From Vicinamibacterales bacterium (GTDB taxonomy: Bacteria; Acidobacteriota; Vicinamibacteria; Vicinamibacterales; 2-12-FULL-66-21), in NCBI GenBank assembly GCA_035758845.1, contig DASTVZ010000178.1, positions 34,713 to 98,712 on the forward strand: DNA of 64,000 nt, read 5' to 3'. The notes beneath the pieces were generated by a model that saw only the letters and a list, made by a program, of their open reading frames with translations, was not told the origin of the DNA and did not search any database. A program made the translations under genes and the position numbers. Positions 11,654 through 55,313 of this stretch are shown in pieces; the stretch's first letter is position 1, and each line of letters starts with the position of its first letter.

Positions 11654-11696
11654 ATTGCGGATTGGTGACTGCGGTCATCAGTCGACAATCCGCAAT
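11654..11696. repeat. imperfect 17-bp-stem hairpin with heptamer-periodic arms (GCGGATT)n / (AATCCGC)
   Basis: 11654-11670 ATTGCGGATTGGTGACT pairs with 11680-11696 AGTCGACAATCCGCAAT (15 of 17). Sits between the guaA stop and the dnaE start. Confidence 0.8.
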
Positions 11697-11701
11697 CGAC
11701 T

Positions 11702-14700
11702 ATGAGCAATTTCGTCCATCTTCATCTGCATTCCGAGTATTCGCTCCTCGACGGCGCCTGCCGGATTGAGGAGCTGCTGGATCGCGTCGCGGAATTGAAG
11801 ATGCCGGCGGTGGCGATCACCGAGCACGGGAACATGTTCTCGTCGGTGATTTTTCACGATCAGGCGCGGAAGCGTGGACTCAACCCGATCCTCGGATGCG
11901 AGGTCTACGTCGCGCCGGGCGATCGACGGATCAAGAGCGGCACGCCGGGCGAGACCGCCAACCACCTGGTCTTGCTCGCTGAGAGCAAGACCGGCTACCA
12001 CAATCTGATCAAGCTGGTATCGTCCGGGTACACAGAGGGGTTCTACTACAAGCCGCGCATCGATAAAGAGCTTCTGGCGCAGCATGCCGAAGGCTTGATT
12101 GGCTTGAGCAGTTGTCTCAAGGGGGAAGTGGCCACCGGCATCCGCACTGAGCAACAGCAGAAAGCGATCGCCGCCGCGGCGACGTATCGCGACATCCTCG
12201 GTCGACAAAACTTTTTCCTGGAGATGCAATACCAGGGGATCGACGAGCAGAAGACCGTCAATACGGGCCTGCTCCCGATTGCCAGGGATCTCGGCCTGTC
12301 GCTCGTCGCCACCAACGACGTTCACTATCTCCAGAACTCAGATTTCAAACCGCACGATGTGCTGCTCTGTATCGGTACCGGCAAATCGGTCAACGACGCC
12401 GAGCGCCTGCGCTATCACGGCGACCAGTTCTACCTGAAGACCACCGCAGAGATGGCGGAGGTGTTCAAGGATCATCCGGACGCGCTCGCCAACACCGTGC
12501 GGATTGCGGAGCGCTGCCACGTCGACCTCTCGAACGCGATCAACCACCTGCCGAATTTCGACGTGCCCGCCGGCTTCACCCTCGATGACTACTTCGAACA
12601 TGTCGTCCGTGAGGGATTCGGGCAGCGATTGCCGAGACTGAAAGGACTCGCCGCGGCTGGAGTCCTCAGCCACACCATCGACGAGTACGAACGGCGGCTG
12701 ACCTATGAAGTCGACATGATCAAGAAGATGAAGTATCCGGGGTACTTCCTGATCACCTGGGACTTCATTCGGTACGCGCGCGAGCAGGGCATTCCAGTCG
12801 GACCCGGCCGCGGTTCTGCCGCCGGCAGTTTCGTCGCGTATTGCCTTCGCATCACCGATGTCGATCCGATCGAATACGACCTGATCTTCGAACGTTTTCT
12901 CAATCCCGAACGCGTCTCGCTTCCGGACATCGATATTGACTTCTGCGAGCGGCGGCGCGGCGAGGTCATCGACTACGTCACACAGAAGTACGGCCGCGAG
13001 AACGTCGCGCAGATCATCACGTTCGGCACGATGAAGGCGAGAGCGGTGGTTCGCGATGTCGCGCGCGTCATGGACATTCCCTACGCCGATGCCGATCGGG
13101 TGGCGAAAGCCATCCCGCCGGCGCTGGACATGACCCTCGACAAGGCGCTGGAGGAGAACCCCGTCCTCAAGGACATGGAGCAGAAGGACGAGCGGGTCAA
13201 AGAGCTGCTGGGCGTCGCGCGCCGACTCGAGGGGATGACGCGGCATGCGTCGGTGCACGCCGCGGGTGTGGTGATCGCGCCGCGGCCGTTGACCGAGTTC
13301 GTTCCTCTCTACAAGAGTCAAAAGGACGAAATCGTCACACAGTGGGCAATGAAGGAGGTCGAACGCATGGGCCTCCTGAAGATGGATTTCCTCGGGCTCA
13401 GCACGCTCACGCTGATTTGCGACGCGCGCGACGAGATTCGGCGCACCGAGGGCATCGATCTCGACATCGACGCGATTCCGCTGAACGACGCGAAAACCTT
13501 CCAGTTGTTCTGCGATGGTCAGACCTACGGCGTGTTCCAGTTTGAAAGCTCGGGCATGCGCGAGCTGCTGCGGAAGGCGAAGCCGGAACGGCTCGACGAT
13601 CTGATCGCCTTGAATGCGCTGTATCGTCCTGGTCCACTCAAGAGCGGGATGGTCGACGATTACATCTCGCGCAAGCAGGGAAAAACCGAGGTCAAATACG
13701 AACTTCCGCAGCTCGCGCCAATCCTCGAGGACACCTACGGGGTGATCGCCTATCAGGAACAGGTCATGCGCATCGCCGCCGTCCTGGCCGGATTCACGAT
13801 GGGCCAGTCCGACGTCCTGCGAAAGGCCATGGGCAAGAAGGACCCCAAGGTCATGGCGAAGCAGCGCGAGGCCTTCGTCAGCGGCGCCGTCAAGAACGGA
13901 GTCAGCGAGAAGAAAGCCACCAAGATCTTCGACTTGATGGAGTTCTTTGCCGGCTACGGGTTCAACAAGTCCCACTCGACGACGTATGCGTGGGTGGCAT
14001 ATCAGACCGCGTACCTCAAGGCGAATTATCCCGCGCACTTCATGGCGGCACTGCTCACCATCGAGGCCGCCAACACCGACAAGCTCGCCATGTACCTCGG
14101 AGAATGCCGCGAACTTGGCGTCACCATCCTTGCGCCCGACATCAACTCGAGCGAAATGGCGTTCACGGTGGTGCACGGCGGCGTCAGGTTCGGACTCTGC
14201 GCGGTCAAAAACGTCGGCGAGGGTGCGATCCAGTCGATGCTCAACGTGCGTCGCGAACACGGCCGCATCGATTCGCTCTACACACTCTGTGAGTATGCCG
14301 ATTTGCGGCTGGTCAACAAGCGCGTACTCGAGAGTTTGATCAAGGCGGGCGCGCTCGATTCGCTCGTGCCGGCAGCGAGCGGCACCGTCGGCGGGCGCCG
14401 CGCGCGGCTCTTTGCCGCTGTCGACAAGGCGATCGAGCACGGTGGCCGCCACCAGCGCGATCGTGAGAAAGGGCAATCGCAGTTGTTCGGCGGGAGCGAC
14501 GACGACAGTTCGTCGGCCGCCGTGCCGTTGCCCGACGCGCCGGCGTGGGCCGAAATCCAACAGCTCGCGGGTGAGAAGGAAGCGCTGGGCCTCTACATGA
14601 GCGGGCATCCACTCGATCGCTTTACCGAAGAATTGAAGACGTTCGGCGCGCGACGCGTCGCCGATCTCACCGCCTCGGAAGCCGATATCTGGGTGGGCGG

Positions 14701-15178: not shown

Positions 15179-15273
15179 AATGCTGAATGCTGATGTCTGA
15201 ATGCTGAATGTGGCAGTGTCTTTAGGCCATGCCACATCAGAAATCAACAATCAGCAATCAGCACTTTCAGAAT
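15179..15273. repeat. heptamer-armed long hairpin (AATGCTG)n ... (NNCAATC)n
   Basis: Left-arm heptads at 15179-15213. A perfect 7-bp apex stem TGTGGCA/TGCCACA (15209-15215 / 15230-15236). Right-arm heptads at 15239-15273. About 6 of 7 positions are complementary per heptad. Confidence 0.8.
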
Positions 15274-16280: not shown

Positions 16281-18002
16281 ATGAAGACTCTCCTGTGGCA
16301 TCACCTGCCGTGCAATGACGCCCAGGCGGCCACCCTTGCCGGCGCACTCGGCGTGCATCCGATCATCGCCCGACTGCTCTGTCTTCGTGGGTTCAGTAAC
16401 GTCGACGACGCGGCACGGTTTTTGAACCCGTCGCTGGATCAGTTACACGACCCGTTCCGGCTGGCGGACATGGACCGGGCCGTCGATCGGTTGGAGCAGG
16501 CACTCGCGCGCCGCGAGCGGATCGCGATCCATGGCGACTACGACGTCGACGGCATCACCTCGACGGTCATCCTTCGCCGCGCCCTCGAGATGCTCGGCGG
16601 TGACGTCGTCCATTTCATTCCTGAGCGACTGCGCGATGGATATGGCCTGCAGCGAGCCGCCATCGATCGACTTCATGGCGAACGCGTTGGTTTGATTGTG
16701 TCGGTCGACTGCGGAATCAGAAGTTCGGATGCCGCGGCCCGGGCGCGCGAGCTTGGCGTCGACCTCATCGTCACCGATCATCATGAACCCGACGGGACGT
16801 TGCCATCAGCGCTCGCGGTGATCAACCCGAAGCGCGCCGACTGCACCTATCCAGACAAGCATCTGGCCGGGGTTGGCGTCGCCCTCAAACTCGTCCAGGC
16901 GCTCTGCCACCGCGCCGGGAAAGGGAAGTGGCTGCCGGCATTCATCAAAGTCGCCGCAATTGGCACGCTCGCGGATGTCGTCCCGCTGGTCGGAGAGAAT
17001 CGCGTGATTGCGCGCCTGGGCCTGGCCTCGCTCAGTCGCGGGCCGCACACGATCGGCTTGCGGTCCCTGCTCGATGCGTCCGGCCTGAGCGGCAAGACAA
17101 TCGATAGTTACCAGGTGGCATTCATGCTGGCGCCTCGCGTCAATGCCGCGGGGCGTATGAGCACGCCGGACATCGCCACCCGCCTGCTGCTCGCGACCGA
17201 CGAAGCGATGGGAGAGGAAGCGCGCTCGCTCGCCCAACAGTTGAACGACGAGAATCTCCGGCGACAGCAGGAAGAGGCGGATCTCGTAGCGCAAGCTCGC
17301 AAGGCGATCGAAACCGACCCTGCCGTCGGCGCACATAACGTCCTGGTGGTCGGAGGAGATGGATGGCATCGCGGTGTGATCGGCATCGCCGCTTCGAAGC
17401 TCGTGGATACATTTCACAAGCCGGCCATTGTCCTGTCGGTGGAAGGCGAAGTGGCGCACGGATCCTGCCGAAGTATTCCTGACTTCGACATGCTCGCCGC
17501 GCTGGAGCATTGTTCCGACGTGTTCGTCAGGTTTGGCGGGCACAAACAAGCCGCCGGTCTGACAATGGAAGCCGCCCGCGTGCCGGAGTTCCGGTCGCGC
17601 ATAAATGCCTATGCCGACGACGTGCTCGAGCCGGATCAGCTGCGCCCACGTCTTCGGATCGACGGCCCGCTGAGCCTGCGCTCGATTACCCCGGACTTCA
17701 TGCGCGAGCTCGACACCATGGGTCCGTTCGGTATGGCGAATCCGCGGCCGGTATTTCACGCCTCAGGCGTCGAGATCGTCGACGGACCGCGGCCGCTCAA
17801 GGACCGGCATCTCAAGATGACCTTTTCGCAGGATGGACGGCGCTTTCGGGCGATCGCATGGCGTGCCGCCGAACGCGCCGACTTTCTCAATCAGAACCGA
17901 GCTGGCGTGAACCTCGCCTTCTCGCTGGAAAAGAACGAATTCCAGGGGGAAACGTATCTCGAGTTGTCCGTCGCTGACATCAAGAGCCTGAGCGACGGAT
18001 AA
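16281..18002 (+). CDS. recJ: single-stranded-DNA-specific exonuclease RecJ
   Basis: DHH motifs (IAIHGDYDVDGITS, VTDHH) and DHHA1 (GGHKQAAG). I trimmed the start to ATG 16281, just after the accA stop. The track ORF from 16212 overlaps accA. Confidence 0.9.
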   Translation: MKTLLWHHLPCNDAQAATLAGALGVHPIIARLLCLRGFSNVDDAARFLNPSLDQLHDPFRLADMDRAVDRLEQALARRERIAIHGDYDVDGITSTVILRRALEMLGGDVVHFIPERLRDGYGLQRAAIDRLHGERVGLIVSVDCGIRSSDAAARARELGVDLIVTDHHEPDGTLPSALAVINPKRADCTYPDKHLAGVGVALKLVQALCHRAGKGKWLPAFIKVAAIGTLADVVPLVGENRVIARLGLASLSRGPHTIGLRSLLDASGLSGKTIDSYQVAFMLAPRVNAAGRMSTPDIATRLLLATDEAMGEEARSLAQQLNDENLRRQQEEADLVAQARKAIETDPAVGAHNVLVVGGDGWHRGVIGIAASKLVDTFHKPAIVLSVEGEVAHGSCRSIPDFDMLAALEHCSDVFVRFGGHKQAAGLTMEAARVPEFRSRINAYADDVLEPDQLRPRLRIDGPLSLRSITPDFMRELDTMGPFGMANPRPVFHASGVEIVDGPRPLKDRHLKMTFSQDGRRFRAIAWRAAERADFLNQNRAGVNLAFSLEKNEFQGETYLELSVADIKSLSDG

Positions 18003-18186
18003 TGGAATTGCTGACTGTTGATTGCCGATTTGGCGCGGTCTAACCAGCCTTGGCCAAGGCTACGGCGGTCCGCGGAGCGCTTCGCGCGAAGGCGGAAGAC
18101 CGCGCCCTACAGCCATCAATCGGCAATGACATTCGACAATCGGCAATCACAGCAATCAGCAATCGACAATCAGCAATCAGCAATTC
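18003..18186. repeat. heptamer arrays (NGATTGC)x4 and (NNCAATC)x~10 flanking an inserted 79-bp element
   Basis: Left arm 18005-18032, right arm 18112-18186. The arms are mutually complementary in sequence family. Confidence 0.75.
18033..18111 (+). repeat. 79-bp structured repeat, copy 1 (closing stem GCGCGGTCT/AGACCGCGC)
   Basis: Near-identical to 53904-53980. Contains the 16-nt palindrome AGCCTTGGCCAAGGCT and a TCCGC...GCGGA stem. Confidence 0.8.
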
Positions 18187-22579: not shown

Positions 22580-22659
22580 GCTCTCAGCTATCAGCTCTCA
22601 GCTGTCAGCAGCACGCGGCGGCTGTGAGCTGAAAGCTGACGGCTGACAGCTGATAGCTT
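22578..22659. repeat. heptamer-armed hairpin (CAGCTNT)n / (GCTGANN)n
   Basis: Left arm 22585-22612 and right arm 22621-22658, with the right arm the reverse complement of the left. It fills the rpoN-hpf spacer. Confidence 0.85.
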
Positions 22660-37069: not shown

Positions 37070-37552
37070 ATGCAGATTGAGATGACGATCAAGGGGCTGA
37101 TGGTCGATCCGATCACGAACATGCCGATCATCATTCTCCGCGACAAGGCGGAGCAGCGCGTGCTGCCGATCTGGGTCGGCGTGTTCGAGGCCAATGCCAT
37201 CGCGCTGCAGATCGAGAACGTCACCACGCCGCGCCCGATGACGCACGACCTGCTGCGCAACGTCATTCAGGATCTGAAAGCCGACATCCAGAAGATCGTC
37301 GTCTCGGATCTGAAGGACAACACCTTCTACGCGTTGATCTATCTGCTGGTCAACGGAGAGTCGATGGCGATCGATGCGCGGCCAAGCGATGCGATTGCCC
37401 TCGCGCTTCGCGCTCGCGCCCCTATCTTCGTCGAGGACACGGTCATCGACAACGCGAAGACGGTCGATTTCGCGCCCGAGAAGCGCGATTCAGAGTTGCA
37501 GAAGTGGCTCGAGAGCCTCGACCCGAACGAGATGGGGAAGTACAAGATGTAA
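37070..37552 (+). CDS. bifunctional nuclease family protein (BFN/DUF151)
   Basis: The LPIWVGVFEANAI...TPRPMTHDLL...RPSDAIALALR pattern. Start trimmed to ATG 37070. Confidence 0.8.
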   Translation: MQIEMTIKGLMVDPITNMPIIILRDKAEQRVLPIWVGVFEANAIALQIENVTTPRPMTHDLLRNVIQDLKADIQKIVVSDLKDNTFYALIYLLVNGESMAIDARPSDAIALALRARAPIFVEDTVIDNAKTVDFAPEKRDSELQKWLESLDPNEMGKYKM

Positions 37553-37557
37553 GTTTT

Positions 37558-37606
37558 GGCTGCTGGCTGCTGGCTGCTGGCTGCTGGCTGCTGGCTGCTG
37601 GCTGCT
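37558..37606. repeat. perfect tandem heptamer (GGCTGCT)x7
   Basis: Counted base by base: seven exact copies. Confidence 0.95.
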
Positions 37607-37647
37607 GCAACGTACTTCGAAAGTTTCCCGCCTTCGACGCGCTCCGC

Positions 37648-37698
37648 TTAGCAATCACAGCAGGAGCCGACAACCGGAAGCCAAGAGCTCGTAAGCCG
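37648..37698. repeat. degenerate heptamer array (NNNAGCC)x~7, approximate complement of GGCTGCT
   Basis: TTAGCAA TCACAGC AGGAGCC GACAACC GGAAGCC AAGAGCT. Confidence 0.6.
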
Positions 37699-39381: not shown

Positions 39382-39412
39382 CTCGCGGCGGCGTGGCGGC
39401 GGGCGGCGGGCT

Positions 39413-39468
39413 GGCTGCTGGCTGCTGGCTGCTGGCTGCTGGCTGCTGGCTGCTGGCTGCTGGCTGCT
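39413..39468. repeat. perfect tandem heptamer (GGCTGCT)x8
   Basis: Eight exact copies plus partial units on both sides (39408-39475). Begins 32 nt after the parB stop. Confidence 0.95.
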
Positions 39469-39514
39469 GGCTGTGATGGTCGCTATGAAAGCGACACGCG
39501 TCAAGTTCTTGCCG

Positions 39515-39627
39515 CGAAGCCGAAACGCGAGGAGCCGGGAGCCGGGAGCCAAGAGCCAGGAGCCGGAAGCCAGGAGCAGCCAGGAGCCGAGAACCGAGAG
39601 CCGAGAGCCGGAATCGGAGCCCGAACC
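39515..39627. repeat. degenerate heptamer array (RGGAGCC)x~15, approximate complement of GGCTGCT
   Basis: AGGAGCC GGGAGCC GGGAGCC AAGAGCC AGGAGCC GGAAGCC and onward. One fixed mismatch per heptad against AGCAGCC. Confidence 0.8.
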
Positions 39628-42207: not shown

Positions 42208-42293
42208 TCGGGATCCGTTGTCCGGGATCCGGGATCCGGGCTGCGTCTCGAGATCGATACGGAAAACGGATCCCGGACTCCGGATCCCGGCAG
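42208..42293. repeat. CGGGATC/GATCCCG heptamer-armed hairpin, copy A
   Basis: The left arm 42208-42240 and right arm 42266-42293 pair at 21 of 25 positions. Confidence 0.85.
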
Positions 42294-42713: not shown

Positions 42714-44405
42714 CTATTTCACGAATTTCACTCCGGCAATCGAGATCGAATTCTGGCCTCCCGGCAGCGCATTCGTGAGATCGACCACGAACAGAAGTGA
42801 ACCGGCACCGGTCGTGTCGGGTGCCTGGCCCTGCTGAAAGTCGGCAGGGACCATTCCGGCGACTGGAACCGAAACCTCCCGTCGCTCATTGTCGACATAG
42901 ACCGATTTCTCCCAGCGCTCTCCCCTGCCATTTCGATACCGCAACTGCACGGACACCCGACCAGGATGCACCGCGACGATTGAGAATCTGATGGCCTTGA
43001 ATGTCGCGGCCCGTCCCTGGAAATCGGTGACCGCTGCGGCAAACTGACTGCGCCGTGTACCGCCAGCCAGCGTGTAATCAAGCCTCACCTCGCCGCCCGA
43101 AGCAATGATCTCCGCCTGCGTATCTGGGTCTTTCTCTGCGTGCCAGACTGCATCCGGCCCAAGGGGAACCGTGACATCCGGCCCGAATGTCGGCATCTCG
43201 ATCACGAATGGAGCACGGTAGAGGGCATTACTCACAATCCACGGCACGGCAGGTTTGCCCGGCGCGTACGGGACACGCGCTTCGAACCGCACAATCCCCA
43301 TCTCCTCTTTGGTCAATTGATACCGGCCGGAGGCGCCAGCCCTTAACAGCGGGAACTCGCGACCGTTGCGTACCATTACCAGCTCGGCGCCGTCACCGAT
43401 TCCGTAATCAAGCCACGCTCCGGGCCCGCCTTCGCGCGAAGCGACTTGGCGAGATCTCGCCGAAGCCTTGGCGTCGGCGGGCGGATCGGACTCGACGTCA
43501 AAATAACCGGGTGCGGCGATCGCGTCGATCAGCGTAAACACTCGCCCTGTCCGAACCGCCGCCAGGAGTTCCCTGGCGTCGGCCGCAGCATCGCCGGAAA
43601 ACGGCCGCTCGAGAATCGCTCTCGTCGTGAAGGTTCGAAAGCTTGCTTCGTATGACGGAACGGTGCCCAGCGCTGGACGCCGCTTCCCTCCTTCTTCCAT
43701 CCCTCGTCCGATTCCACCGTGAGCATCGACACCGGCGAGGGCCACCACGGGACGTCGCTGAATCACGTCATCCCAATGCGCGAACGTCGCAATCGGACGA
43801 TCGAGCAGCGACGCGAGCGCAGGTGCTGGCCGCACCAGGTAATCAAAAAGGACCTGGCTGATTCGGGCGCGAGACTCATCGCGCCATTCGCTGTCCGCGC
43901 TGAGCCATTCAAGACCGTCGAAAGGCGCATCCCAATCCTTCCAGGCCAGCTGGGATCTGGGTGAATCGGGATGGGCGACGATGCCAAATCCTCCGAGCCG
44001 CTTGACGTCTTCGACGACGGCCGACGGTTCGCCGCCGAGAGGATATGGCGCGGGTCGCATGTCGAGCGCGACGTAGTGTCCGCCGTTGGTGCTGATTTCG
44101 ACCGCGTCCAGGCACAACACGCCATGAAGGTATGCGGGCGGATCTGGCGTCCGCATCCCGTCGCCGTGATCGGTAAGGATGATGAATGCGAGACCCGCGC
44201 GCGATGCCGCAGCGGCAATCGCATCCTTGTCAGCCGCGCCATCCGATCGAGTGGAGTGGATGTGATACGCACCGCTGACCGTTCGCCGCATCAGCTCGGG
44301 ATTTACGGTGACGTTCGTTTGCCTGGGCTGCGGCGGAAGTGTGGCGAGCAGGAAAAAAATAACGGCGGCCGCGATGGCCGCCGTTACTAGTGCTACCTTT
44401 CTCAT
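42714..44405 (-). CDS. PHP-domain (CehA/McbA-like) metallohydrolase with a C-terminal beta-rich domain; N-terminal membrane anchor or signal
   Basis: YHIHSTRSDG and LTDHGD PHP motifs. N-terminal hydrophobic segment VALVTAAIAAAVIFFLL. Confidence 0.7.
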   Translation of the reverse strand: MRKVALVTAAIAAAVIFFLLATLPPQPRQTNVTVNPELMRRTVSGAYHIHSTRSDGAADKDAIAAAASRAGLAFIILTDHGDGMRTPDPPAYLHGVLCLDAVEISTNGGHYVALDMRPAPYPLGGEPSAVVEDVKRLGGFGIVAHPDSPRSQLAWKDWDAPFDGLEWLSADSEWRDESRARISQVLFDYLVRPAPALASLLDRPIATFAHWDDVIQRRPVVALAGVDAHGGIGRGMEEGGKRRPALGTVPSYEASFRTFTTRAILERPFSGDAAADARELLAAVRTGRVFTLIDAIAAPGYFDVESDPPADAKASARSRQVASREGGPGAWLDYGIGDGAELVMVRNGREFPLLRAGASGRYQLTKEEMGIVRFEARVPYAPGKPAVPWIVSNALYRAPFVIEMPTFGPDVTVPLGPDAVWHAEKDPDTQAEIIASGGEVRLDYTLAGGTRRSQFAAAVTDFQGRAATFKAIRFSIVAVHPGRVSVQLRYRNGRGERWEKSVYVDNERREVSVPVAGMVPADFQQGQAPDTTGAGSLLFVVDLTNALPGGQNSISIAGVKFVK

Positions 44406-46111: not shown

Positions 46112-46169
46112 AGTCCTCCTCCAGTACGCGGTTGTGGCGTGTACTAAATAGACGAACCGCGTGGTGGTT

Positions 46170-46251
46170 GGTTCCGGGTTCCGGGATCCGGGATCCGAAT
46201 CGATCCACCGAGGGCGCGGATCACGGATACCGGACCACGGATCACGACTTA
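46170..46251. repeat. GGWTCCG / CGGAYNA heptamer-armed hairpin, degenerate relative of the CGGGATC family
   Basis: Left heptads at 46170-46197 and right heptads at 46217-46251. Follows the xerD stop on the minus strand. Confidence 0.65.
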
Positions 46252-49872: not shown

Positions 49873-49910
49873 GAGTTGATGATGCGGATCGTACCACGGG
49901 TGAATCCTGT

Positions 49911-50003
49911 CGGGATCCGTTGTGCGGGATCCGGGATCCGATCTCTCGCATATACGCCGTGACGATGCGCACCACGGATCCCGGACACCGGATCCCGGCA
50001 GGC
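49911..50003. repeat. CGGGATC/GATCCCG heptamer-armed hairpin, copy B
   Basis: The arms are almost identical to copy A (one substitution per arm). The loop sequence is unrelated. Confidence 0.85.
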
Positions 50004-52810: not shown

Positions 52811-53900
52811 ATCTTTCGAACGCGCGTCGGAGATCCTGCTCGAAGGGATCCTCCATCGGGCGTTTCCGGCAGCGACCACTGAAGTTGGCCGATCAACCGG
52901 GCCAATCTGGCGACGCGCATTCGGCACGCTCACTTACGCAGCCGATTCGCCCGACGTCGGCCACGACACGATTTTCGATCTCGCCTCGCTGACGAAGGTC
53001 ATCGCGACGACGACCTTGTCGATGCGAGCGATCGATGACGGTCTGCTGACGCTGGACGATCGCCTCGCTGCGCACCTTCCGGAGTGGCGCGGCACGGATC
53101 GCGAAGCGGTCACAATCCGGGATCTGCTCGTACACGCCTCCGGGCTGCCAGCGTATCTGCCGTTCTTTCGCGATCACACCGGCCGTGTCGAATTCGAACC
53201 CGCGATCTGCCACACGCCGCTCGAGTATCCGCCTCGCTCGCAATCGATCTACAGCGACCTCGGCTTCATGCTCCTCGGATTCATCCTTGAAGATCTTCGT
53301 CGAAACACGCAGGCCCGTCCCGGCCAGTTCGATCCCTCCGCGACCCTGGTCTCACAATTCCGGCGCGTCGCTGCCTTCATCACGATCGAACCGCTCGCCT
53401 ACAACCCGCCACGTCCGTGGCGGTCGCGAACCGCGCCGACCGAACACGACGCTTGGCGCGGAAGAACCCTGCAAGGAGAAGTGCACGACGAAAACGCATG
53501 GGCTCTCGGGGGGGCCGCCGGCCACGCCGGGCTGTTCGGAACGGCCGGGGCCGTCGGCGCGTTCGCGCAATCCGTGTTGCGGACAATCGGCGGTGAACGC
53601 GTCATCTCCGCGCCCGACACTTTTCGCGATTTCATGCGTCGCGCCGGAACTCCCGGCAGTTCGAGAGCCCTCGGATGGGACACGATGCTTCCGACGTCAT
53701 CGTGCGGATCGCGAATGTCACCGACGGCCATCGGGCATACGGGCTTCACCGGGACGTCACTGTGGATCGACTGGGAGCGGGATCTGTACGTCGTGCTGTT
53801 GACCAATCGCGTGCACCCGACGCGCGAGAACGATCGGCTTCGCGCGATCCGACCGGCGTTTCACGATGCGGTGATTGAGGAATTCGATCGAACGCTGTAG
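52803..53900 (+). CDS. serine hydrolase, beta-lactamase/DD-peptidase fold (AmiE/YbbE-like candidate)
   Basis: SxxK motif (FDLASLTKV), YSD, and a HTGFTG (KTG-like) box. ATG 52803 overlaps the symporter stop. Confidence 0.8.
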   Translation: MLESFERASEILLEGILHRAFPAATTEVGRSTGPIWRRAFGTLTYAADSPDVGHDTIFDLASLTKVIATTTLSMRAIDDGLLTLDDRLAAHLPEWRGTDREAVTIRDLLVHASGLPAYLPFFRDHTGRVEFEPAICHTPLEYPPRSQSIYSDLGFMLLGFILEDLRRNTQARPGQFDPSATLVSQFRRVAAFITIEPLAYNPPRPWRSRTAPTEHDAWRGRTLQGEVHDENAWALGGAAGHAGLFGTAGAVGAFAQSVLRTIGGERVISAPDTFRDFMRRAGTPGSSRALGWDTMLPTSSCGSRMSPTAIGHTGFTGTSLWIDWERDLYVVLLTNRVHPTRENDRLRAIRPAFHDAVIEEFDRTL

Positions 53901-53903
53901 GCG

Positions 53904-53980
53904 GCGGGGTCTAACCAGCCTCCGCTAAAGCTACGGCGGTCCGCCGACGCCTTGGCGAAGGCGGAAGACCCCGCCCTACA
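53904..53980 (+). repeat. 77-bp structured repeat, copy 2 (closing stem GCGGGGTCT/AGACCCCGC)
   Basis: Same orientation and architecture as 18033-18111, with paired base changes in two stems. Confidence 0.8.
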
Positions 53981-53995: not shown

Positions 53996-55276
53996 TTACA
54001 AACAGGGTCCATTTACGGTAATGCTGGTCTGACCCTGACCGACTGGACCGGTCGATTGAGTAACGGTAACCCGAACGTCAAAGGTGCTTGGTTTTGTATA
54101 CGTGTGCGAAATCTGCGGACTGCTCACCGTTGTTGTCGCTGATCCATCGCCGAAGTCCCATTCGTAAGAAGTAATGGACGAAACCGCCCCGGAGACGCTG
54201 GCGGTAAACGTGACTCTAGCGTTACACGACGCCGTTGCCGGACCGGTGATGGTTACCGCCGGCGGTTGAGCCGGGAGAATGGTGACCGCGGTGGCGACCT
54301 GCTCGTTGAAGCCGCTTGCGTCGGTCGCAGTCGCTCTCACCGTGAATGTGCCAGGCTGCCTGTACACATGTTGGATGACGGTGCTACCGCTGATCGCCCC
54401 CAGCGGTTGCTGCGAGCCATCACCAAAATCCACGATGACATTCTGAATGTTTGCCGTGGCGGCGACGTTCACCGTAAAGCTCGCCGGCAGTCCCGCGGAA
54501 ACCGCGGTCGTTGGAGCGGTGATGCTGAGACCCGTTCGCGGACTCAGACTGACGGTCACATCGGCCGTCTTGCCGGCAACGTTCGCCGTTACCTTCGCCG
54601 TGCGTGGCGCATTAAGAGACGTGGTCGCCACGCCATTTGAATCTGTCGTCGCCGTCGGCGGATTCAACGAGCCATTGTCGGTGGTAAACGTGACCGGGAT
54701 CCCGGAAAGGCCGAGGCCGGACACATCCTCGACACGAGCGGTGATCGTTGATGTCCCACCACCCGGCGGCAGCGTCTGTGGGCTGGCAGACAGGGTCACG
54801 CGCTCCACGGCTGCTGCTCCCACCTTCAGGTTCTCGAGCTTGCCCGATGCCCCACCTGAGAATGCCGTGATCGTCGCCGTGCCGCTCTGATTGCCCGAAA
54901 AGAAACGCACTCGTACTTGACCATTGCTGGTTCGGGCTTCACTCGGCTCGATTCGGCCGATCGTTGTCGTGAAAGACACCAGCGTGCCATTTTGTACCGG
55001 CGTTCCTGCTCCGGTAGTCGTCGTACTCGTAGTGCCTGTTGTTCCCGTTCCCGGAGTCCCGTTTGTCGGCGTCGTCGGCGTGCTTTGCGCCGTCCCGTTT
55101 TCAATGACGTTGGCGATGATCTCGATATCGCCATTCAGCGGGACGGTGTTGGCCGATGCAAAGACGCTGATCACCGAACCGGTCGGCGCGAGCAGCGGGA
55201 CTTTGTCGCACGCGACCGCGAGCGACAGAGCCGCGATGAGGCAGAGCACGGCAAGGCCGGCAAAGGAGCGCTTCAT
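53996..55276 (-). CDS. lipoprotein with bacterial Ig-like (Big_1-type) and two PKD domains
   Basis: Lipobox LAVAC after MKRSFAGLAVLCLIAALS. Thr-rich linker. PKD signatures (VDFGDGS...HVY, WDFGDGS...HTY). Start trimmed to ATG 55276. Confidence 0.7.
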   Translation of the reverse strand: MKRSFAGLAVLCLIAALSLAVACDKVPLLAPTGSVISVFASANTVPLNGDIEIIANVIENGTAQSTPTTPTNGTPGTGTTGTTSTTTTGAGTPVQNGTLVSFTTTIGRIEPSEARTSNGQVRVRFFSGNQSGTATITAFSGGASGKLENLKVGAAAVERVTLSASPQTLPPGGGTSTITARVEDVSGLGLSGIPVTFTTDNGSLNPPTATTDSNGVATTSLNAPRTAKVTANVAGKTADVTVSLSPRTGLSITAPTTAVSAGLPASFTVNVAATANIQNVIVDFGDGSQQPLGAISGSTVIQHVYRQPGTFTVRATATDASGFNEQVATAVTILPAQPPAVTITGPATASCNARVTFTASVSGAVSSITSYEWDFGDGSATTTVSSPQISHTYTKPSTFDVRVTVTQSTGPVGQGQTSITVNGPCL

Positions 55277-55313
55277 GTGTGCTACCATCGGAGACGCTAA
55301 GGATAATACTCTC

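Follow-up and report, generated by a model that had tools for sequence, protein, structure and literature searches.

What is the GC-rich repeat of 78 bp that stands once behind recJ and once behind a hydrolase gene in a bacterium of the Vicinamibacterales (Acidobacteriota)? The DNA analysed, here called the window, is a stretch of 64,000 nucleotides (GenBank assembly GCA_035758845.1, contig DASTVZ010000178.1, positions 34,713 to 98,712). A sequence-only reading of it had offered three identities for the repeat: a repetitive extragenic palindrome (REP) or bacterial interspersed mosaic element (BIME), a terminator module, or a small structured RNA. The first of these was supported, with about 130 long and about 70 short copies of the family recovered; the other two were not. 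The family is a REP/BIME-type palindromic repeat of a known kind, and is new for its phylum. The window repeats themselves are probably long-loop members of a GTAG-tagged REP family that is specific to the Vicinamibacterales and has a BIME-like organisation.

Copy 1 lies at 18033-18111 and copy 2 at 53904-53980, both on the + strand, and coordinates, strands and sequences were all as first reported. The stem of each copy gains one further 5′ base (18032 and 53903), which brings it to 10 bp. In copy 1 the closing stem is formed by a 5′ arm, GGCGCGGTCT (18032-18041), and a 3′ arm, AGACCGCGCC (18097-18106). The arms enclose a loop module of 55 nt, AACCAGCC...GGCGGA (18042-18096), and are followed by the tag CTACA (18107-18111), which reads GTAG on the - strand. 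Copy 2 has the arms GGCGGGGTCT (53903-53912) and AGACCCCGCC (53966-53975), a module of 53 nt (53913-53965) and the tag CTACA (53976-53980). Its module was assigned from sequence and fold to a sub-family, CTAAAGCT/CTTGG, that forms a single long, nearly perfect hairpin. The 3′ arms rest on sequence and covariation, and the tags on a family-wide count. The C:G to G:C swap noticed in the closing stem (GGCGCGGTCT/AGACCGCGCC versus GGCGGGGTCT/AGACCCCGCC) is present, and over more than 100 relatives the compensatory changes hold in this stem and in the apical one. The apical parts of the two copies are each self-complementary, GCGC-TTC-GCGC in copy 1 (18077-18087) and CGCC-TT-GGCG in copy 2. The loop of copy 1 also contains a 16-nt palindrome, AGCCTTGGCCAAGGCT, at 18046-18061, without a counterpart in copy 2. 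Chance resemblance is excluded, since an exact 14-mer and an exact 15-mer of the element occur only at these two sites in the window; a repeat search of the window lists the pair too, under two of its families (D7 and D17). Besides the two full copies, the 64 kb contain a stem-less relative of the inner part (43421-43477, - strand), to which we return below.

The size and host range of the family were determined by pattern scans. One genome from each of 185,579 species, a collection without the window's own genome, was scanned with a pattern made of the two blocks beside the closing stem. This gave 25 sites, all in eight metagenome-assembled genomes (MAGs) labelled Vicinamibacterales or Acidobacteriota, with 1-8 sites per MAG. 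A looser pattern, in which the interior was left free, matched 101 soil or rhizosphere metagenome contigs. Both scans combined yielded 131 long copies, of which 114 are unique if their flanks are taken into account; the consensus is GGCGGGTCT-RACCAGCCTCCGCCAAGGCTACGGCGGTCCGCCGAAGC-(variable tip)-GCGAAGGCGGA-AGACCCGCC-(N)CTAC. When the first 26 copies were made into a covariance model, it also found much shorter elements in the same loci, and a direct search then recovered about 70 short forms in 0.88 Mb of these loci.

Long and short forms share a core, a GC-rich stem of 9-11 bp (NNNNGGGTCT/AGACCCNNNN) followed by CTAC or CCAC on one side only. In the short form the stem closes on a 2-nt loop, which is TY on the GTAG strand (for example GGCGGGTCT-AA-AGACCCGCC-TCTAC); in the long form, to which both window copies belong, it encloses a quasi-palindromic loop module of 53-56 nt. 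The same outer-stem variants, GCCGG, GGCGG, CGTCGG, GGCGGG and GGCGCG, occur in both forms at similar frequencies. Given the shared stem and tag, the long form is the short form with ACCAGCC...GGCGG placed between TCT(R) and AAGAC. A tag (CTAC, CCAC, CGAC or CTCC) was present 0-2 nt past the stem in about 80 of 90 long copies and in 56 of 64 short ones, and no GTAG-like motif was present on the 5′ side of 85/90 long and 58/64 short copies. The tag is therefore one-sided, as in REPs, and the short form, with a stem-loop of 22-24 nt and a tag of 4 nt, falls within the REP size range of 20-40 nt. The basic unit may be written 5′-GTAG-(0-2 nt)-NNNNGGGTCT-TY-AGACCCNNNN-3′. The window copies carry its complement, hence their CTACA at the 3′ end, and in the long form the conserved module of nested palindromes takes the place of the 2-nt loop.

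Covariation was analysed in an alignment of 105 distinct long copies. Strong covariation is seen in the five outer pairs of the closing stem; pair 5:80 is GC in 48 copies, CG in 36 and UA in 10, and pair 6:79 is CG in 76, GC in 19, UG in three, AU in two and UA in one. Stem cells changed on both sides numbered 81, against 26±3 in shuffled alignments and at most 28 when the partner columns were slid. Substitutions in the closing stem across this multi-copy family are thus compensatory. The inner part of the stem, GGTCT/AGACC, is invariant, but is mostly fixed by both search patterns. At the variable tip, GC-x...y-GC, x and y are paired (GC, CG, TA, AT or GT) in 23 of 30 distinct tips and in 0 of 2000 shuffles, so that the apical compensation first seen between the two window copies extends to the family. 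The middle stem, AGCCT/AGGCT, had been described as perfect in copy 1 only. This was confirmed, and in 16/105 copies the stem is broken by a G-to-A change without compensation. Conservation is 95% in the 35 interior columns fixed by neither pattern, 80% in the outer stem and 37% in the flanks. As the interior is almost invariant, covariation cannot separate one long hairpin from two hairpins side by side; three models were tried for the inner fold, and covariation is confined to the closing stem and the apical tip.

Covariation in two helices, together with conserved unpaired positions, would also be expected of a structured RNA selected in the transcript, whether a stabiliser in the 3′ untranslated region (UTR), a factor-dependent terminator or a small RNA gene, the repeats then marking the many genes that need it. 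The RNA folds predicted for the two copies are very stable, with -43 kcal/mol (z -2.8) for copy 1 and -46 kcal/mol (z -5.6) for copy 2; where C is replaced by T in segment 22-26, the + strand can still pair as G·U, and REPs are known to affect mRNA stability (PMC3733652). Predicted single-stranded DNA, however, folds equally well from either strand of both copies, and the mismatches in the covarying stem comprise 12 G·T and 13 A·C. This equality favours neither strand, as expected of a palindrome acting at the DNA level and not of an RNA made from one strand. The one-sided tag, moreover, lies outside any helix. The search of Rfam that had been proposed matched no family: the window gave no hits at gathering score, and when the locus was scanned permissively (E < 10) there was still nothing beyond chance hairpins (E > 0.6, about 17-18 bits against thresholds of 53-87). 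At neither copy was there a T-tract or other terminator-like site, and the intrinsic terminator was rejected. The lack of a T-tract and of an Rfam match, together with the equal mismatch counts, fits DNA hairpins of GTAG-tagged REPs or BIMEs and not a strand-specific RNA.

The positions of the elements relative to genes bear on the same alternative. Genes were called with a simple, crude codon-bias caller, and the counts refer to classifiable copies. Long copies lie between convergent genes in 33 cases, between co-directional genes in 40 (26 in one orientation and 14 in the other) and between divergent genes in five; the figures for short copies are 19, 21 (12 and 9) and 0. The family is thus extragenic and mostly found between convergent or unidirectional genes, as REPs are. 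The 3′ end of a gene adjoins 73/78 long and 40/40 short copies, often with only 2-30 nt between stop codon and element, and the element may have either orientation. Adjacency to gene ends would suit an RNA function at the ends of transcripts, but co-directional transcripts carry either strand of the element (26+12 versus 14+9) and many of the spacers are convergent. The two window copies conform to this pattern, and each does follow a + strand stop codon closely. The stop codon of recJ (DHH, DHHA1 and RecJ_OB domains) is at 18002, 30 nt upstream of copy 1, and a gene resembling LptC/LptD_N begins 79 nt past the copy. The stop codon of a beta-lactamase-family hydrolase gene is at 53900, which leaves 2 nt to the stem of copy 2; a convergent gene for a PKD-domain protein (53996-55288, - strand), a neighbour that the sequence-only reading did not name, has its stop 16 nt beyond the end of the copy.

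Neighbouring long and short elements are arranged as inverted pairs in 21 cases and as direct pairs in two, and no pairs of two long elements were found. The spacer is 6-8 nt in 13 of the inverted pairs, and the longer spacers measure 24-45 nt. The same dimer of a short (-) and a long (+) element, GTGG-CGTCGGGTCT-TT-AGACCCGACG-(5-6 nt)-GGGCGGGTCT-GACC...-AGACCCGCCC-CCAC, recurs at nine independent loci. The family as a whole therefore shows the alternation of different REP types with linkers of set length that characterises BIMEs; both window copies are singletons, outside any such pair. Inverted pairs with 7-nt spacers would be unexpected of a structured RNA. The partners of the recurrent dimer are of unequal length and have different stems (CGTCGG versus GGGCGG), and the identity of a REPIN, an inverted doublet of REPs, was rejected on this ground.

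Orthologous sites were compared among relatives of the window. Spacers downstream of recJ were read next to RecJ homologues 90-99% identical to that of the window, which has the long form at this place (relatives are denoted by L and a number). L131 (RecJ 93%) has two short forms with their tags facing each other, GGCGGGGTCT-GA-AGACCCCGCC-CTAC ... GTAG-GGCGCGGTCT-TT-AGACCGCGC. A single variant short hairpin followed by CTACA is present in L130 (90%), a degenerate hairpin in L128 and L129 (92%), and no element in L127 (99%), L132 (93%), L133 and L134 (both 91%). The spacer between the hydrolase and PKD-domain genes is 95 nt long in the window and 36-48 nt in three relatives. L136 carries there a short hairpin with a stem identical to that of copy 2, GGCGGGGTCT-CG-AGACCCCGCC, and L135 a degenerate short hairpin and then CTAC. 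The content of both spacers thus turns over among close relatives, and at the copy 2 locus the long form of the window and the short form of L136 differ essentially by the loop module. As occupancy shifts among relatives whose flanking proteins are 90-99% identical, the neighbouring genes do not need the element. This again speaks against an RNA that the adjoining transcripts require, and we regard such an RNA as quite improbable. A BLAST comparison of flanks among the fetched loci gave no pairs of filled and empty sites, because these loci had all been chosen for carrying long forms.

The two spacers do raise the question of whether the module spreads by its own means, as a tiny insertion that is not autonomous or as a cassette for conversion, and is copied into the 2-nt loops of REP hairpins already in place and occasionally to other sites, so that the long form would be a nested composite and not a REP variant copied as a whole. 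The module is 95% conserved within a stem that varies (80%) and uses the stem types of the short form; at the copy 2 locus the stem of a relative is identical but lacks the module, and in the recJ spacer short forms of relatives stand in place of the window's long form. Other inserts occupy the same loop position (L017:4768-4828), and variants with duplicated units are found in L022, L024 and L051. Against this, the comparisons would fit a loss of the module as well as a gain, and an insert shaped like a hairpin is also prone to deletion. The loop dinucleotide is CG in L136 and AA in the window, so that the two do not form a clean filled and empty pair. Sub-types of the module correlate with stem types, as copying of whole elements within lineages predicts. 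We consider a separately inserted module unlikely, and a long-loop form of a GTAG-tagged REP remains the preferred reading of the window repeats.

Several further variants of the same REP stem and tag were observed. The unrelated insert in L017 is 26 nt long and recurs in L047 and L091, and variant loops were also listed at L012:1545-1635 and L025:4902-4991. One divergent long form has compensatory changes in its inner stem (GGGGGCT/AGCCCCC) and in a central palindrome (CGGCGTG/CACGCCG).

The stem-less relative of the module in the window lies inside a gene. It is a 57-nt in-frame insertion (43421-43477, - strand), encoding 19 amino acids (PADAKASARSRQVASREGG), in an open reading frame (42714-44405, - strand) for a conserved hypothetical, membrane-anchored protein of 563 amino acids; the covariance model matched it at 43426-43481 (-). 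The inserted sequence, CCGACGCCAAGGCTTCGGCGAGATCTCGCCAAGTCGCTTCGCGCGAAGGCGGGCCCG, matches most of the module and lacks the GGTCT/AGACC stem, and its edges are ambiguous by a direct repeat of 4-5 nt, (G/A)CCCG. The 19 amino acids are missing from the closest homologues (94-95% identity), and most homologues are shorter by about 19 residues. One homologue at 92% identity has the insert, and in one at 83% it is cut to 30 nt. The empty site in L137 reads ...GATCCACCCG|GAGCGTGG, and the 30-nt remnant is in L138. This insertion, with its direct repeat, argues for a mobile module, but TCTRA|AGAC, where it sits in REP loops, and CCCG|GAGC, where it sits in the gene, have no target sequence in common. 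REPs inside genes have been reported earlier (PMC3733652). A bolder form of the argument takes the module as an independent, minute, self-folding DNA cassette, written repeatedly into REP loops and at least once, in frame, into a gene. Such a cassette could live as a parasite or travel as a passenger of the REP system, or it could be a functional module, acting at the protein or RNA level, that is spread by the REP machinery. It would, if real, account for the fact that between species the module varies less than its enclosing stem. We consider it rather unlikely, both as to the cassette and as to these origins. The module is quasi-palindromic, and its own profile matches the opposite strand too. 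Its 3′ hairpin (CGCCGAAGCGCTTCGCGCGAAGGCGGA) was also seen alone in other spacers (L130:18923-18950 and L116:13371-13401), which suggests that the module was assembled from smaller palindromic units.

An element of about 80 nt with inverted termini, in many intergenic copies and variably present at orthologous sites, could also be a miniature transposable element with inverted repeats (MITE), with the closing stem as its terminal inverted repeats (TIRs). The termini are, however, the most variable part of the element and yet complementary within each copy, and DDE transposases need conserved termini. No target-site duplication was found at copies in REP context, where the flanks are unrelated. 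The short form is merely a 22-nt hairpin, the tag is one-sided, and no transposase gene lies near any copy in the 0.93 Mb searched (the window and 138 loci). This candidate was rejected, and we hold a MITE to be very improbable.

Other identities fared no better. A scan for tRNA and transfer-messenger RNA genes found none, and blastn of the consensus against plasmid and phage collections gave no match. For the integron site attC, GTCTAAC fits RYYYAAC; however, the 3′ end is GAAGAC and not GTTRRRY, half the copies have GTCTGAC, and orientation relative to genes is mixed. The copies are not in tandem, and a CRISPR identity was rejected as well.

Among the known systems close to the elements described here is the GTAG REP super-family (Nunvar 2010, PMC2817692; Di Nocera 2013, PMC3733652). 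In the published description its stems measure 6-9 bp, most loops read TY, complementary stem residues set the sub-families apart, and large-loop variants exist beside short-loop ones; their tags degenerate to GYAG or GTGG, and they lie between unidirectional or convergent genes and occasionally within genes (PMC3733652). The Vicinamibacterales family likewise has a GC-rich stem-loop with a tag at one end, degenerating to GTGG, GGAG or GTCG, a 2-nt TY loop in the short form, complementary stem sub-families, coexisting short and large loops, and sites between convergent or unidirectional genes and at times inside genes. It differs in its host phylum, in a longer (9-11 bp) and perfect stem, in a loop of 53-56 nt that is more conserved than the stem, and in its low apparent copy number.

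In E. coli, BIMEs are pairs of a REP and an inverse REP (iREP) of different types, their number per locus varies between strains, and TnpA-REP cleaves at GGCC|TACA (PMC3333891). The BIMEs of that species (types y, z1 and z2; Ton-Hoang 2012, PMC3333891) resemble the present pairs in having two REP types in inverted alternation with spacers of 6-8 or 24-45 nt and in the variation of units per locus between close relatives. On the iREP side, GGCCTACA, present in many copies, is identical to a mapped TnpA-REP cleavage site. Unlike those BIMEs, the present family showed no long tandem arrays, only dimers and few half-site arrays at most, and has no recognisable linker with a site for integration host factor (IHF). 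The REPINs of Pseudomonas (Bertels and Rainey 2011, PMC3116915) are similar in that an inverted REP pair recurs at different loci and in that the conserved part shows a master sequence with variants. They are dissimilar in that the partners here differ in stem and length and so form no single long hairpin; nor is the long form an inverted duplication of the short one. The sub-terminal hairpins of IS200/IS605 elements and of their miniature derivatives, the palindrome-associated transposable elements (PATEs), also have imperfect hairpins with an adjacent conserved tetranucleotide, are acted on as single-stranded DNA and excise seamlessly, which fits the clean empty gene site in L137. In the present family, however, there are no distinct left-end and right-end hairpins and no TnpA or TnpB nearby, and both orientations occur.

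Several observations count against the assignment to GTAG-tagged REPs. A survey of 2013 found GTAG REPs in Proteobacteria, Cyanobacteria, Chloroflexi and the Planctomycetes-Verrucomicrobia-Chlamydiae (PVC) group and did not list them for Acidobacteria, for which it reported TIR-flanked Y1 transposases only (PMC3733652); a survey of 2018 assigned to Planctomycetes and Acidobacteria a Y1 class that is rare and has atypical hairpins at its flanks. The 78-nt long form, as in both window copies, exceeds the REP size range. Long copies matching the exact pattern number 1-8 per MAG, and two in the window, whereas classical REPs typically number in the hundreds, and usually more than 100, per genome. 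The stem of the short form is perfect, without the mismatch that TnpA-REP of E. coli needs. The module is better conserved across species than the outer stem, and simple copying of whole elements predicts the reverse. Finally, no gene for a Y1 nuclease of the REP-associated tyrosine transposase (RAYT) type was found in the 0.93 Mb by phmmer and motif searches, nor, in this sample, a RAYT gene flanked by the repeats as in a REPtron. The phmmer queries were TnpA-REP of E. coli (checked against PDB 4ER8) and the TnpA proteins of IS200 and IS608, the latter two as unverified sequences. As RAYTs are usually single-copy and the search was limited to 0.93 Mb, this is a weak negative.

A mechanism can be proposed by analogy with E. 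coli REPs and TnpA-REP, and it is on this analogy that we infer a tie to a RAYT-type transposase. The hairpin would form on single-stranded DNA, and an HUH/Y1 nuclease of RAYT type would recognise the tag and irregularities in the stem, cut the tag at C|T and rejoin the strands. Such a reaction could give rise to new copies, to pairs, to half-site arrays and to interconversion of long and short forms. Where the element is transcribed in a 3′ UTR, the hairpin would probably shield mRNA ends or impede read-through, as REPs do; this would be a side effect and not the reason for the existence of the family.

Half-site arrays, in which the 3′ half of a short form, with its tag, is repeated once or twice behind it (GAAGACCCGGCCTACGTA...), were observed at L033:10764-10830, L033:2452-2500, L088:7037-7080 and L034:2821-2890. 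They are of the product type expected of cutting and rejoining at the tag.

It is from Proteobacteria that REPs and BIMEs are most familiar. The literature searched contains no description of a GTAG-type REP family for Acidobacteriota, one of the most abundant phyla in soil, and no papers on REPs in Vicinamibacterales were found. This order is known mainly through MAGs, and the family provides a compact marker for it in metagenomes; the repeats are likely to break contigs and to make intergenic regions vary from strain to strain. The family also offers a test case for the diversification of REPs, in which the stem drifts by compensatory changes around a loop module that stays constant, long and short forms are paired in the manner of BIMEs, and the module can stand by itself within a gene. 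Should a matching RAYT be found, the partnership of REPs and RAYTs would extend to a new phylum.

Further features were observed around copy 1 and elsewhere in the window. A match to a sigma-70-like promoter, CTGACA-18 nt-GATAAT (10/12), lies at 17974-18003 (+), overlapping the recJ stop codon and about 30 nt upstream of copy 1. One such site was found, against a shuffle mean of 0.1, and copy 2 has no equivalent. Copy 1 is also bordered by heptamer arrays. An array of TTGCTGA type (18008-18030, +) is the inverted partner of a tandem array of CAATCAG/CAATCGG type (18112-18185, +), which was picked up by the repeat search as well (family D2) and lies between copy 1 and the start of the LptC/LptD_N-like gene. 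Copy 1 thus stands at the apex of inverted arrays, and the 146 nt concerned have a predicted fold of -71 kcal/mol (z -6.0). Each genome has its own heptamer in the orthologous spacers behind recJ (GAATGTT/AACATTC, CCAGTTT/AACTGGT or TTGCTGA/CAATCAG), but the arrays remain inverted to each other.

Tandem arrays of heptamers (CAATCAG, TGGCTGC, GGATCCC/CGGGATC and AGCCNGG) are present in many spacers, often inverted on both sides, and are reminiscent of the short tandemly repeated repetitive (STRR) heptamers of cyanobacteria. Further arrays in the window are at 11674-11704, 15236-15266, 22583-22613, 37543-37621, 37665-37688, 39384-39490, 39533-39601, 42208-42293, 46167-46250 and 49910-50001. Other repeat types were seen in the MAGs that carry the family, at L008:68-130, L015:4831-4950, L023:6666-6790 and L005:5918-6030; they are inverted pairs of heptamer arrays (AGTCTGA/AGTCTCA) and, distinct from these, the palindrome CGTCGGGTGTCT-TTTTCATCGAAAA-AGACACCCGACG.

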